DNA of 64,000 nt from Eledone cirrhosa (Eukaryota). The stretch spans positions 130,634,001-130,698,000 of the forward strand of contig OZ024745.1 of NCBI GenBank assembly GCA_964016885.1. Direction: 5' to 3'. The notes under the pieces are model-generated. The model ran no database searches, had not been told where the DNA came from, and saw only the letters and a list, made by a program, of their open reading frames with translations. Made by a program: the position numbers and the translations under genes. Positions 6,733 to 57,502 of this stretch are shown here, piece by piece; the first letter of the stretch is position 1; each line of letters begins with the position of its first letter.

Positions 6733-7290
6733 TGGTGGCTTGTAACTCATTTTCGAGTACGGCCACTACTTTATATCCATGTAGGAGAACCCCTACCGAT
6801 GCGCTGAACGAGTGTAACTTTTTAGTCCAGCCAGCGACTTGAAAACTCTGGTACAAACACTACACTTGTGACAATTATTGACACATAGTGCTGGGCCCAT
6901 GGTACCATGTGACGATAAGTGCAGAGAGATCTCCAGATATAAAGCAATGCCTGTGCCGTGAAGCTTTTATAATGAGCAAAGGCACTGCACAAAGCCTGTC
7001 CCACTCTCTTAACCAAGATGATATGTACCAAAAAGAAGAACAAGTCAACATCATTGGGTACCATCAGGGCTGCAGGTGTTATATCAGAGTTTTCCTTCTC
7101 CTAGAATTCTGCCTTGACAAAGGCTAAGGGGTCATCTCTCCCGGTGATTTTGGATGGCCATTGACTCTTAAGAGCTCCTTTGCCCTTTGACAGGTTTTGT
7201 TTTTAGTCCTGTGGGATGTCCAAAGTCACCCTCCTCACCAAGAAAACTTGGTGGGGCTGCCAGTTTAGTCGCCAACGACCCGACCATGAG
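6733..7290 (-). mobile_element. Non-autonomous ~555-bp RTE-associated element, copy 1
   Basis: Near-identical to 61380-61928; flanked by (TACA)n; its 3' terminus resembles that of the RTE at 62096. Confidence 0.75.
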
Positions 7291-7366
7291 ACATACATAC
7301 ATACATACATACATACATACATACATACATACATACATACATACATACATACATACATACATACAT

Positions 7367-9300
7367 CTATTTTCACTGATAAAATAAAATATTGCAGGGG
7401 TATATTTCAGGGGGACAGACTCTCTGTGATATTATTCATCTTGTCATTAAACCCCTTGTCCTTTCTGATCAAGAAATGTGAGGGATACATCATTGGCTCA
7501 CAGGAGGAGAGAAATATGAACCTAACCCATAATTTCTTTGTGGACGATCTGAAACTCTATGCCAAGAACATGGATGGGATGAAGAAAAATCTTGACCTGG
7601 TTACATCGTTCTCAAAGGATATAGGAATGGAGTTTGGCCAAGATAAATACTCATACATGACTGTAAAGCGGGGGAAAACAACAACCCAATCTAGCAACAT
7701 TATCATCAATGGCCTAACTGTTTCACCGATATCTGATGAGAACTGCTACAGATACCTGGGGATAGATGAGAACATATCCTATAATGGTATCTGTAATAAG
7801 GAACGCGTAACCAGGAAATGCTACACCCGATTAGAAAAGATCTGGTCATCGGAACTCTCTGCGCAAAACAAAACAGTGGCTCACAATGTGTTTGCTGTGC
7901 CTGTCCTAACACCAACGTTTGGAATACTCAATTGGACGATAGACGAAATCCGAGCAGTTGATGTTGGAACTCGAAAAATACTGAACAACACCGGAAATTC
8001 CACATCAACAGTGACATAGACCGCCTTTACTTGAAACGTAAGCAGGGAGGCAGAGGCCTAACATGAGTCCAGACAACATTTGAATGTCGCATCATATCTC
8101 TCCGACAACATCTACGAACCTCGAAGCGTAGGAGCCCGTTTCTTCAGCAAGTCTAAGTGCATGAAACAGATAAGATCATGAGAGTTGGGAAGGAACTACT
8201 TGAGAGATATTCCCTTTGTGATAATCAAAAACTCACACCCAGGAATGTCGCTCAGCAGTATCGCAGTGAATCCATGGATGAAAAACTGCATGCCTATCAT
8301 CAAAAAATCATGCATGGATATGTTGCCAGGAAGCTCCAGAGTGAGAGTAATATAGATAAGGAAAGTAGTCTTGGACCAACAACCGCTATATTGGCTCCCA
8401 CTTTGAAGGATACCCTTTTGCAATCAAGGAACATGAAATATCTGATTCACAAAAGAGATAGGGATGCAGGCAAAACACCTAGATGTGATAACAAGTGCAG
8501 ACTCTGCAGAACTACCATCGAGGATATCACCCATGTCATCAGTAGCTATCCAAAGATGTCATCGCGGTACTATCTACCTATGAGGCATAATGTAGTGGCC
8601 AAAACACTGTACAATGCAGTGCGTAAAAAAGATAGCCCCGATAATAAACACATTAAAAGCTAGAACAATGTGGAAGACATCCATGTACATAATATGAAAG
8701 AGTACTGGTGGAATGTTCCAGTAAAAACCCCAATAAAATGCAGGCATGACAGACCAGATATTATGATATGGGACAGGGAGAAGAAAACATGCACAGTAGT
8801 GGAAATTAGCTGCCCAGAAGATGCCAATATAATATCAAAGATTAGCGAAAAGGAGAATATTTATGCAGAACTGATGAGAAATCTGCAGATACTCAACCCT
8901 GATTACACCTTCAGATTTATGTCTGTGATTATTGGGGCACTGGGATATGTTAGTAACTGTCTCAATACAAATCTTGAGAAGCTAGGCTTCACAGGAACAG
9001 AAAGAACACAACTAGTTAGGAAATTACAAGTACAATCCATTAATGGAACAGTAAAAATATGTAAAACATTCCAAATATTTTGCATCTAATAACTGCATAT
9101 ACACATGTACAGATACAAAGCATATACACATGCACACATACACATGCACACATACAATAACATCCATATCTACACATGCATGCATACATACATATCTACC
9201 TAGTTGATGTTGTGTAAATTCCAATGAGAGAGTCTTGTGTCTATGTTAGAAACCGACTCTCTCTCTATTGGTAAAACTTTGTGAAATTATAAAACCAGAA
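7367..9300 (+). mobile_element. 5'-truncated, decayed R4/Dong-like non-LTR retrotransposon (RT, zinc knuckle, restriction-like endonuclease)
   Basis: RT motifs [38 protein letters not shown]; CRLC..EDITHVISSYP..RHN (last Cys mutated); RPDIMIWD..VVEISCP..K..Y endonuclease; frameshifts near 8000 and 8375-8430, in-frame stops; ORF ends 9089; (ACAT)n on both flanks. Confidence 0.9.
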
Positions 9301-12279: not shown

Positions 12280-13925
<1,646 letters not shown>

Positions 13926-13926
13926 A

Positions 13927-14530
13927 GAATAGAATAAAACGTAATTTCATTTCTCACTCTTAGTACGGCACTTACTTAAATGTAAGTATGTATGTATGTA
14001 TACGTACATACATATATGTATACAGACGTACAGTAGTATGTATATATATACATACATGCACACATATATATATGCACGTATCGGTGTACCGAACATTTAT
14101 TATAATGCTAGGTTTGTTTGTTTGTAAACAAACAAACAGCCCGAATTACGCCGTACAGTGTTTAAGCAACCACGTCACCTTTTTGTTCAACACTGACACA
14201 GGAACGATGTACTGGTTTCAAGCTTATTAGCTATCGTCAGCTTCGTATACCTTCCTGCCAGATGGTTGAACGTCTGAAAGTATATACTTTCCTTATGCAT
14301 AATAACGGCTGAGCAGCCTAATTTGCATATCGAGTGAGTTCAGTCGGTCGGACACACCGAAAACGATAAATGGAATAGAATGAAACGAAATTTCATTTCT
14401 CACTCTTAGTACGGTAAACCGATACGTGCATATATATATATATATATATGTGTGTCTGCATGTATGTATATATATATATACATACTACTGTACGTCTGTA
14501 TACATATATGTATGTACGTATAGATACATA
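13927..14530 (-). mobile_element. Family A hammerhead-bearing element: ~446-bp unit with terminal redundancy plus an inverted piece
   Basis: 13927-13968 is repeated directly at 14373-14414; 14412-14522 is the reverse complement of about 13998-14091; homologous to 56461-56783 and 35298-35395; TA tracts on both sides. Confidence 0.8.
14193..14261 (-). ncRNA. Minimal type-I hammerhead ribozyme motif (family A)
   Basis: Minus strand ACGAAG-CTGACGA-T-AGCT-AATA-AGCT-T-GAAA-CCAG-TA/CATCGT; stem I has one mismatch. Confidence 0.7.
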
Positions 14531-14558
14531 CATATTCATATATATATATATATATCTA

Positions 14559-14603
<45 letters not shown>

Positions 14604-14670
14604 TATATATAAGATATATATATATTATATATTCATTTATATATAATATATATATATATATTATATATTC

Positions 14671-14760
<90 letters not shown>

Positions 14761-14805
14761 TATATAATATATATATATAATATATATATATAATATATAT
14801 TCATT

Positions 14806-14837
<32 letters not shown>

Positions 14838-14843
<6 letters not shown>

Positions 14844-24310: not shown

Positions 24311-24502
24311 AATAATTGTTTCTATTTTTGGTACAAGGCCAGCAATTATCCCAGTGGATTACAGGTACTTTATTTTATCGACCCCTTAAGGATGAAAGGC
24401 AAAATTAACCTCGACGGGATTTGAACTTAGATCGTAAAGGGGCGTAACTCTATGCTGCAAAGCATGGCGTCCGGCCCTCTACCAATTCTGCCAATCCACC
24501 GC
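24311..24502 (-). mobile_element. SINE-M
   Basis: Full consensus match. Confidence 0.85.
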
Positions 24503-24869
24503 CTTTTCTACCAATTCTGCCAATCGTTTCCAAACATTAATAATGTTTTACTATAAATCTTTTCATGATATTGCATTACTAAATTGGCGGATGTGGTGGC
24601 TACTTTCGTTCCAATTAGAGTCCCTGACCGGTACGTGGATTTACCGAATATTAAGGTTTTGTAATATGAATCTAAGTCTATCAAGGAAGAAATCGTTTTA
24701 ATGCGAACTGCTAATTCAAATTGGTATTTATCTAACCAGCATTTAATTCTATATATCCCATAGTCGTAGGGATATATGTGTATAGTTTTACAACATCACA
24801 GTAAACAAGAAGTTTAATTTAAAATTCTGGTGTAGGTAGGTGTTTCAAGGTCCTCTCGTTTATAGAAAC

Positions 24870-35178: not shown

Positions 35179-35395
<217 letters not shown>

Positions 35396-35456
35396 TTTTC
35401 TGGAGTATAATATCAATGATATTAATAAATGGAAACTATATTTATAAAACCATATT

Positions 35457-35517
35457 TATTCTATTATATATATTTCAAGGGTACCGAAACTTTGGTACGC
35501 CCTCATCAGATAAAATA
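35457..35517 (-). ncRNA. Minimal type-I hammerhead motif (family B)
   Basis: Minus strand TATTTTAT-CTGATGA-GGGCGTACC-AAAGTTTC-GGTACCCTT-GAAA-TATATA-TA/ATAGAATA. Confidence 0.65.
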
Positions 35518-36026
35518 CAAAATTTGTTTTATACATAGTGACATACCAAGGAATCAGACCTTGGATATCCAAACGGAACTTGAACCGTTATAAAGAGAGA
35601 GAGAGGTAGAGAGAGATAGAGAGAGAGAAAAGCGAGAGAAATTTTTAAAAAGTAAAGAATTCCAATTGTTGATGAAGTGGTAAGGCACCAAAGTTGGTAC
35701 TTGTAAGAAAGGGCAACAATGAATTGATGGTCCTCATAATACAATGCAAAGAGATTGCAAGAAAGGAGGAGATATTGCCACCAGCACCTTCAAGGTGCCA
35801 CAAACACTTATGAGGGTGCGAATGGTACTACAGACCAGCGAAGACATTAGGGAGAGTTACTGCCTTGATGTGGAGACCCCTAATTTGAAAGCCATTGGTA
35901 GGATTTTAAAGGGGTTCCTAAAAGGAGCCCTACGCGTCATGCTAGCAGCTAGAATGGCATTACGCTATTTATTGTGTATTGATCTACTTGTTTGGGCCCT
36001 TGAGGTCAATAAAAAAATTATTAAAG

Positions 36027-54652: not shown

Positions 54653-55491
54653 TGTACTGTTATTATGGGTGGCATATGAAAAGACTTCAATATATATATA
54701 TATATATATATATTTCGTTTCTGAATTTGTTTAGCAAGATTCTTTATCTGAAAACGTGTGTTGAAACCGATATTGTTATACTTTGTGAGGGTCATGTTGC
54801 CAATAAGAAACACACGCACCAGCTGCTTTCACTTCAATTTATTATAAATTAAATTTATAAATTTAGGAATTTATAAATTTCCGGTTGGTTGGTTCCACAA
54901 CCAGACGATTGTTCATATATTGTCAAAGTTCTTTCGTCACACATTCTGTGACCTCTTCAGTGACTGGGGATTCTTTTCTTTTCTTTGTTTTTGTGCCTCT
55001 CCTTTGTTCTGTCCTACGCCATCTTGTTTTTGTGTGTGTTGTGTGCTTAGTTTGCGCATGTGTTACATCCGGGTGTCTGTGTGTGTTTATATTTGTTTAT
55101 TTATTTATCTGTTTATTTACATGTTACTGGTTGGTTGTTTGTTCTATGTGTGTATGTGTTTTCATTTTGTCCTTAATTGTAAGTTGTGATATTGCTATTC
55201 CATTCATGCTTTCTATTTAATTTTGAAGTGGTCACAGAATGTGTGACGAAAGAACTTTGACAATATATGAACAATCGTCTGGTTGTGGAACCAACCAACC
55301 AACCGGAAATTTATAAATTCCTAAATTTATAAATTTAATTTATAATAAATTGAAGTGAAAGCAACTGGTGCGTGTGTTTCTTATTGGCAACATGACCCTC
55401 ACAAAGTATAACAATATATATATATATATATATTGAACATTCTCGGAAGTCTTTTCATATGCCACCTATAATAACAGTACACCGCCATAAA
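54653..55491. mobile_element. Family E nested inverted-repeat element
   Basis: Inner arms 54770-54959 versus 55224-55417; outer arms 54653-54688 versus 55456-55491, beyond the TA tracts. Confidence 0.85.
54922..54964 (-). ncRNA. Minimal type-I hammerhead motif (family E)
   Basis: Minus strand GTCA-CTGAAGA-G-GTCACA-GAATG-TGTGAC-GAAA-GAAC-TT/TGAC; the copy in the opposite arm (55223-55261) has a mutated core TTGAAGT. Confidence 0.6.
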
Positions 55492-56460: not shown

Positions 56461-56462
<2 letters not shown>

Positions 56463-56783
56463 CTGGCAGGAAGGTATACGTTGCTGACGATAGCTAATAA
56501 GCTTGAAACTAGTACAGCGTTCCTTTGCCAGTGTTGAACAAACGAGCAACGATGGTTGCTGGACACTACGGCTTAATACGGGATGTTTGTTTACAAACAC
56601 ACCGAGCATTATAATAAATGTTCGGTGAATCCATACGTACATATATATATGTGTGCATGTATGTATATATATATACATACTACTGTACGTCTGTATACAT
56701 ATATGTATGTACGTGTACATACTTATATTTAAGTAACAGCCGTACTAAGAGTGGGAAATGAAATTTCGTTTCTTTTTTTCCGT
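56461..56783 (+). mobile_element. Family A hammerhead-bearing element
   Basis: Reverse-complement homology to 13927-14263; TA tracts on both sides. Confidence 0.82.
56463..56531 (+). ncRNA. Minimal type-I hammerhead ribozyme motif (family A, best preserved)
   Basis: CTGGCAGGAAGG-TAT-ACGTTG-CTGACGA-T-AGCT-AATA-AGCT-T-GAAA-CTAG-TA/CAGCGT-T-CCTTTGCCAG: complete core, palindromic stem III (ACTAGT), extended stem I. Confidence 0.8.
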
Positions 56784-57110
56784 TTATATATATATATATA
56801 AATCCCATCATATATCAAAAACAAATAAAAACCAAATGTTACATCTGTCTGAAGAGAACATGTCAAATTGTTATTATGCAATCGCTTTAACGTTTTCGAA
56901 ATGGGTATAACAATATTATATAATAAACAGAGGATGTACATTTAAAACGGTCTCACTTCTTTATAATATTGACACTCCGGTTGATACCTTATTGATAATA
57001 CTTTGAGGAATACAAATCGGAAAGTAATTTACGTCTGTTTGCGACCAAAGTCGGTGGATTATCTGATCAACCAACTTTCTTAAATTGAATAATGTATATA
57101 TACATATATA

Positions 57111-57283: not shown

Positions 57284-57351
<68 letters not shown>

Positions 57352-57390
57352 ATATTAAATAAATGGAAACTATATTTATAAAACCATATT

Positions 57391-57455
57391 TATTTTATTA
57401 TATATATTTCAAGGGCAACCGAGACAACATTGGTGCGCTTTCATCAGATAAAATA
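57391..57455 (-). ncRNA. Minimal type-I hammerhead motif (family B; element spans 57347-57492)
   Basis: Minus strand TATTTTAT-CTGATGA-AAGCGCACC-AATGTTGTCTC-GGTTGCCCTT-GAAA-TATATA-TA/ATAAAATA; perfect 8-bp stem I. Confidence 0.7.
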
Positions 57456-57502
57456 CAAAGTTTGTTTTATAAATAGAGACGTACCCATGAAATATATTTA
57501 AT

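Follow-up and report, generated by a model that had tools for sequence, protein, structure and literature searches.

Structure of the locus

The window, a stretch of 64,000 nucleotides from Eledone cirrhosa, is dominated by (TA)n in a repeat search, and the feature considered here is an inverted insertion in (TA)n-rich target DNA (left flank 13190..13926, right flank 14543..14840). Its main arm (13927..14414) comprises 1.09 units of a 446-nt repeat, Family A, whose RNA sense is the minus strand. The 3' end of this arm, at about 13920-13927 on the minus strand, is the putative priming site E1 at the edge of (TA)n. The interval from E1 to a second site, E2 (13927..13976, minus strand; ~57 nt from the full E1 end), forms a tail of the kind seen in Penelope-like elements (PLEs) and is found on the main arm only. 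At 14412..14414 lies a 5'-to-5' inversion junction with a CGG microhomology that matches 14091-14089 on the minus strand. The second arm (14412..14542, plus strand) copies 13977-14094 and ends at E2, again at (TA)n and without the tail. The insertion thus consists of an E1 arm (488 nt) and an E2 arm (about 125 nt) in inverted orientation.

A first-pass annotation had described the CGG switch into an inverted copy of the interior, correctly as to the switch itself; the end that it gave for the copy, 14522, is too short, as the arm reaches about 14534-14542. It was also right that a 42-nt block recurs at a spacing of ~446 around a single hammerhead: 13927-13968 and 14373-14414 are identical at 40 of 42 bases with an offset of 446, and one hammerhead lies between them on the minus strand. 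Both mismatches are private changes of the first copy relative to the family majority. The block was taken for a terminal redundancy, a view that we do not share. The second-round overlap (14373..14414, minus strand) stops at the chance 5' truncation of the arm. Since an E1 arm is here joined to an E2 arm, the overlap merely marks where the first arm stopped; its length is incidental, and other copies have the equivalent boundary at many different places.

The type I hammerhead (14193..14261, minus strand) has a stem I with an internal loop, a stem II, the GAAA motif and a 2-bp stem III. Its core CUGACGA occupies 14240-14234, and cleavage is predicted after GUA, at 14210/14209. The Rfam model HH9 matches it weakly (13.3 bits, E 2.1), so that support for the motif comes from Family A as a whole and from a sister family, Family C. 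In a scan of the whole window with Rfam, the 150 matches listed of 274 were sub-threshold, nearly all of them miRNA models on microsatellites. An octamer, ATGCAAAT, lies on the ribozyme (minus) strand at 14328-14321, where it had been placed before, and belongs to the 5' side of a predicted hairpin that is conserved. It is exact in 173 of 197 monomers, many of which come from shared arrays. A promoter role for the octamer is conjectural: by our estimate, chance would produce about 0.5 identical 12-nt blocks per unit where identity is 62%, and Family C does not retain the candidate TATA.

Of its 446 positions, the window unit has 10 at which it departs from the majority sequence of the remaining young loci. 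Two of these private changes concern the ribozyme. The change at 14242 breaks a stem I pair, and that at 14214 turns the stem III palindrome ACUAGU, found in 51 of 51 other copies, into ACCAGU, with which the predicted intermolecular duplex weakens from -6.8 to -0.2 kcal/mol. Contigs X1 and X4 (from one study, of unspecified kind), aligned to the unit, confirm the majority alleles at both positions. An X4 contig that stops at 14209 was disregarded as a cleavage end; X1 contigs stop at 14208. Carrying two ribozyme-weakening changes, the window copy likely has an inactive ribozyme. With a single and weakened ribozyme, it could not itself give a unit RNA running from cut to cut, and it is an ordinary, aged and decayed insertion.

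Family A in the genome

The genome searched (G000, 3.0 Gb) includes the window on its contig C5. A DNA search returned 1,710 candidates, and the 40 that were scored have 97-100% identity. A 31-nt Family A core has 10,046 exact matches, against 0 for the reversed control, and related cores with CUGAUGA have 23,560 more, again with 0 in the control. Unit lengths range from 426 to 538 nt across the repeats measured, loci hold up to 4.3 units, and a search of the unit for open reading frames found no non-repetitive ORF. Among loci taken in chromosome order, an arm exceeds one unit in 20 of 25, which bears out the expectation of head-to-tail multimers of a non-coding hammerhead unit. The hammerhead core is nearly invariant among about 50 copies. 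The copies have variable 5' ends, inverted arms and no fixed terminal direct repeat, as in an architecture without LTRs. By sequence criteria, the locus is a member of the non-LTR retrozymes. In the titles and opening lines covered by our literature search, which left most subscription journals outside, no description of Family A was found and, within the same limits, none of the E1+E2 footprint on a retrozyme.

Fixed 3' ends, inverted arms and (TA)n targets

The ends were examined in 28 distinct young loci, which were picked by a query spanning most of the unit, so that arm lengths and 5' ends are biased. Duplicates (L025, L029, L039, L048, L049, L053, L060, L131, L137, L139, L141, L143 and L187) were excluded before all counts, and L142 additionally from the end count; an alignment with two wrongly placed rows (L005 and L008) entered into none of the counts. 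Of 51 arms at these loci, 45 terminate on the 3' side at E1 (20) or E2 (25), about 290 and 230 nt downstream of the cut, respectively, and ~57 nt apart, and the 5' ends are scattered. Circularly permuted ends, as anticipated by the first-pass annotation, are therefore not what is seen: the 3' ends are fixed at two internal sites and the 5' ends alone vary. The annotation had regarded fixed ends shared by all copies as contrary to a circular template; this is the state of the 3' ends, at two sites, and not of the 5' ends. Fixed 3' ends do not count against a circle, because they match the internal initiation described for PLEs (PMC11167929).

Tail-out inverted pairs number 18 in the 28 loci (13 E1+E2, one E2+E2 and four with another end). 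When Family A and Family C are taken together, 29 of the 30 pairs with both ends at E sites are E1+E2. Junction overlaps between the 5' ends are 0-15 nt in 17 of 18 Family A pairs other than that of the window. In 53 loci, 25 of them taken in chromosome order, (TA)n adjoins 60 of 74 E1 or E2 ends, compared with 3 of 17 other ends and a background of 10%. In six of the 29 E1+E2 pairs the arms are not nested, so fold-back alone is insufficient to make the second arm, and both arms were likely primed on RNA. The 5' ends are not enriched at the ribozyme cut (Family A 5 of 51 vs 3.5 expected; Family C 4 of 43 vs 2.8).

A partial tandem with an inverted truncated copy, a tail at one end and a microsatellite target is a described PLE structure (PMC8557442), and in vitro the PLE tail arises from two adjacent internal start sites of reverse transcription (PMC11167929). 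The dual fixed ends, the tail on one arm and the (TA)n targets of Family A have the form of this Penelope-like tail signature. The first-pass annotation overlooked it, that is, the inverted arm, the tail and the (TA)n target taken together.

A sister family

Family C has a 471-nt unit, 1,463 exact cores and copies up to 99-100% identical. Its alignment to Family A, at 59-64% identity, extends all the way round the unit; doubled units score 344, shuffled ones 33 +/- 5. Its hammerhead is canonical (HH9 E 1.5e-6, below the gathering score). The 3' ends fall at sites homologous to E1 and E2 of Family A in 42 of 43 arms, and 16 of the 17 tail-out pairs in 24 loci are E1+E2.

Long arrays also occur in Family C (31 units at L175-L176, about 15 at L177 and >50 at L178-L180). 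Those of 31 and about 15 units retain an inverted arm and E1 and E2 ends, and all three show higher-order blocks, which suggests retroinsertions turning into satellite. The block duplications indicate that some multimer growth took place at the DNA level, and arrays of 15 to >50 units were for this reason rejected as proof of rolling circle. Two period-2 arrays of about five units, with two alternating unit types (L140:196-2618 and L181:1339-3273), are compatible with a dimer template or with later block duplication. At L113:4485-4998 an F4 PLE with an intact 780-residue frame carries, in a (TA)n tract of its 3' UTR, a young Family C palindrome; this was considered as the 3' end of F4 and proved to be a separate Family C insertion.

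Hammerhead fold and conservation

Over 12 hammerheads, 10 of 18 pairs are altered on both sides, compared with 0 of 500 shuffles and 1-3 pairs in slid controls, in a set that amounts to about three lineages and with a structure that we drew from those very sequences. Five representative units folded as circles have a common domain order and z values of -8 to -12, and the window copy has -5.4. The majority unit is predicted to form a strongly self-paired circle (z -12). Stem I is predicted to hold both cut ends together. A short palindromic helix III has been described as making cleavage dimer-dependent (PMC4209133).

Coding Penelope-like elements

Judged by motif codons, the genome has at least six Neptune-type PLE families among the first 100 of 2,740 matches listed. 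It also has a family of Poseidon type. We presume these clade labels in part. In part they were assigned via the linker motif in PMC8557442. No obviously new family appeared among the first 100 of 2,706 matches listed from a second motif scan. The Neptune-type family F1 has many intact 775-residue frames with RVT_1 and GIY-YIG matches. It has two ends 62 nt apart at (TA)n, to which 21 of 22 ends in 12 loci belong, and an identical head-to-tail junction in 3 loci. The two ends of F3 are 38 nt apart.

When the ends of about six Neptune-type families and of a Poseidon-type family were compared with Family A, no homology was found. An end of F3 and E1 have 13 of 14 bases in common; the match is weak, with P 0.02 obtained in a single one of four tests made post hoc. 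On this similarity and on a chimeric locus, F3 is a weak candidate partner. Two short matches at L109 lie outside the PLE and were dismissed as chance. At L055:1069-1758 (G000:C1:13810511-13813541) a Family A arm is joined 5'-to-5' to an F3-like PLE 3' end, with (TA)n on both sides. Both arms of this chimera end at E2, against the usual E1+E2 rule, and this may reflect a later deletion.

Minimal hammerhead-like motifs, recognised by eye, occur in F1 (L093:2250-2310), F3 (L109:4655-4700), F4 (L113:5455-5500) and F6 (L119:4420-4455), with U for the first core C and an ACCGGU palindrome. They recall the U3-A8 variant of PMC4209133. Hammerheads of the U3-A8 type with ACUAGU are not in excess in the genome (207 matches vs 192 in the control).

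Nature of the template

Private changes in young Family A amount to 28.7 per kb among tandem units of one arm, 22.3 among inverted arms and 24.5 among unrelated loci. Because tandem units diverge about as much as unrelated loci do, the short multimers date from the insertion itself. Alleles known from at least four loci were followed in 25 Family C loci. Of 115 cases, counted where a locus has three or more copies, 108 have the allele in all copies, and 86 cases of lineage alleles carried by all copies span both arms. Concordance is 0.96 within loci vs 0.18 between them. The 111 locus-private alleles of Family C occur in all copies (18), in one copy (83) or in some (10). These patterns imply that new alleles go through a one-unit bottleneck. 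Young Family A is star-like and none of its 58 locus-private alleles is fixed across copies, so that the evidence for a bottleneck rests on Family C. Rare alleles in Family A are shared within loci 10-18 times as often as between loci (8 and 3 events). At the cut site, no indel was found in about 49 Family A and 70 Family C copies.

The proposal that the copies derive from a circular or concatemeric RNA is thus upheld in part: the allele patterns favour a re-copied monomer as template, which would most simply be a circle, and the circle itself is predicted.

Mobilisation and alternative explanations

We put at roughly 0.6 the probability that Family A is a non-coding hammerhead repeat mobilised in trans by PLE proteins, probably from a circular monomer RNA. 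PLE-type mobilisation taken by itself is, from the insertion footprint, very probable. In the proposed mechanism, loci with at least two intact ribozymes would be transcribed into multimeric RNA, which would be cut once per unit by the hammerhead, as predicted from fold and covariation and probably with the aid of ACUAGU dimer pairing. The monomer would then be ligated to a circle, by analogy with the retrozymes of coral, mussel and axolotl. A Neptune-type RT/GIY-YIG complex may cut (TA)n, and the two DNA ends would prime where the footprint is seen, at the fixed positions E1 and E2 within the unit, which are separated by about 57 nt. Extension of each cDNA round the template would vary in length and often exceed one unit, and the arms would join 5'-to-5' at short microhomologies, as found at the junctions, into a tail-out palindrome in which a single arm carries the tail. 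The window copy would be one such product that has since decayed.

What speaks against this explanation stems from the literature and from limits of the data. The one PLE tested in vitro, that of an anole, did not need cleavage and used mainly uncut RNA (PMC11167929); of 9 Xenopus dimers, 8 failed to cleave when assayed in vitro (10.64898/2026.07.22.740005); a linear RNA with terminal redundancy would, through seamless strand transfer, yield identical DNA; and the sampled PLE families include no homologous autonomous partner. The preference of the anole enzyme favours PLE-driven insertion from an uncut linear RNA longer than one unit, in which homologous strand transfer regenerates the multimers and the ribozyme does something else, or nothing, at the insertion step. 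Such a template would likewise be expected to give a seamless cut site and unclustered 5' ends, and the autonomous F1, too, has its identical head-to-tail junction in three loci. We consider it unlikely, if by no means far-fetched: repeated error-free jumps would be required to fix lineage alleles in all units (the 108 of 115 cases), and the conservation of the core, palindrome and long stem I across families that are 59-64% identical would be left unexplained. A linear template could also consist of monomers cut by the ribozyme at both ends, with the reverse transcriptase jumping from the 5' end of one to the 3' end of another. Linear monomers do co-occur with circles in other retrozymes (PMC7229834), and stem I is predicted to hold two cut ends together; jumps of this kind fit poorly with a cut site that shows neither nearby indels nor a pile-up of 5' ends, and we regard them as improbable.

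It is equally hard to see in the unit merely the pseudo-LTR of a long coding PLE, with the copies as its 5'-truncated ends. Family A ends do behave like PLE ends, and among 57 retrozyme families of Xenopus, 24 have homology to annotated transposable elements, nearly all of them PLEs (10.64898/2026.07.22.740005). Against this, Family A arms run into further units or into an inverted arm, a search of about 1.5 kb to either side of 53 loci gave no match to PLE coding sequence, and the ends of the Neptune- and Poseidon-type families sampled have no homology to it. The first-pass annotation had named termini of a long coding PLE as the contrary case, and its own preference is sustained here. Least probable of all is DNA-level spread of the unit as a satellite or foldback repeat, in which the ribozyme would be a relic. 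The inverted repeats formed by the arms and the arrays of 15, 31 and >50 units with higher-order blocks are what it would lead one to expect, and for the short insertions it is already largely refuted by dispersed copies that are variably truncated on the 5' side and stop at two fixed sites on the 3' side, by units of short arrays that are as old as the insertion and by the covariation of the hammerhead.

Mobilisation in trans from a circular monomer may extend to the whole ribozyme superfamily of >33,000 copies. These would then be circular monomers, occasionally dimers, that parasitise the Penelope machinery without having terminal sequence in common with it, the PLE complex priming both cut (TA)n ends at two fixed sites of the circle and rolling round it. 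We advance this wider proposal tentatively, at slightly less than an even chance.

Comparison with known systems

The repeat resembles the metazoan non-LTR retrozymes of PMC7229834: its tandem units are non-coding and low in GC, each has a single type I hammerhead, copies run to thousands and the predicted circle is strongly self-paired. The unit is longer here (426-538 nt vs RNAs of 170-400 nt), and circular RNA was demonstrated there, whereas our circle is a predicted one. Inverted arms, the tail and (TA)n targeting are found here and are undescribed in the available text of that paper, in which 'inverted' and 'microsatellite' occur 0 times; mobilisation of retrozymes by PLEs is proposed in it. 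Retrozymes have also been treated as non-autonomous PLE derivatives (10.64898/2026.07.22.740005), with co-occurring Neptune- and Poseidon-type PLEs and with monomers, dimers and multimers as here. The link drawn there is co-occurrence together with pLTR homology in vertebrates, whereas here it is an insertion footprint, with no pLTR homology found.

EN+ Neptune-type PLEs (PMC8557442; PMC11167929; PMC4209133) are similar in their partial tandems, inverted 5'-truncated arm, tail at one end, microsatellite target, hammerhead with a palindromic stem III upstream of the 3' end and two adjacent internal start sites. They differ from Families A and C in that our repeat is without an ORF and has a tail of 57-74 nt, compared with 30-40 nt in theirs. 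The hammerhead of the repeat is canonical with an extended stem I, whereas the coding PLEs of this genome have minimal variants. Non-autonomous Chlamys elements such as MRC1 are likewise non-coding PLE passengers with multicopy head-to-tail insertions (PMC8557442); as described there, the Chlamys clade is without canonical hammerheads, and its elements generally have the 3' sequence of their partner.

In the available text of the literature compared, the link between retrozymes and PLEs consists of co-occurrence and terminal homology only. In this genome the retrozyme itself bears the dual-start footprint of a PLE, in two families of about 62% identity and at sites that are homologous between them, and the allele patterns call for a one-unit template; as genomic evidence for PLE mobilisation this is unusually clear. 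The genome holds many intact Neptune-type ORFs together with 99%-identical passenger copies, and PLE reverse transcription of a ribozyme-made circle is therefore testable with an existing in vitro assay. It is Family A as a whole, rather than the window copy, that makes this mechanistic step testable. If the circle reading is true, these copies would be direct genomic evidence for the proposed step from retrozyme circles to PLE reverse transcriptase, and a reconstitution could draw on young substrates matched with intact enzymes.

Other elements in the window

An older Family A copy of about 0.75 unit, 86% identical to the majority, lies at 56461-56787, with a plus-strand hammerhead at 56484, an intact palindrome and an E1 end at (TA)n. 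At 35293-35396 a Family A E1 fragment of about 100 nt at a (TA)n edge directly adjoins the end of another hammerhead family. This second abundant family, B, is present at 35400-35560 and 57345-57500, with minus-strand cores at 35509 and 57447. It ends at (TA)n too, is frequently found as inverted pairs in the retrieved loci and has a 10-nt motif in common with the end region of Family A. A third type of hammerhead-like motif, on the minus strand at 54960, occurs also in L079, L103 and L118. Three successive frames at 7207-9089 have the appearance of a broken RT with a C-terminal cysteine-rich and nuclease region, which we take to be that of a non-LTR retrotransposon. The interval 24496-24771 is what is left of a Neptune-type PLE reverse transcriptase, a decayed fragment with 35-40% identity to F1 and F4.
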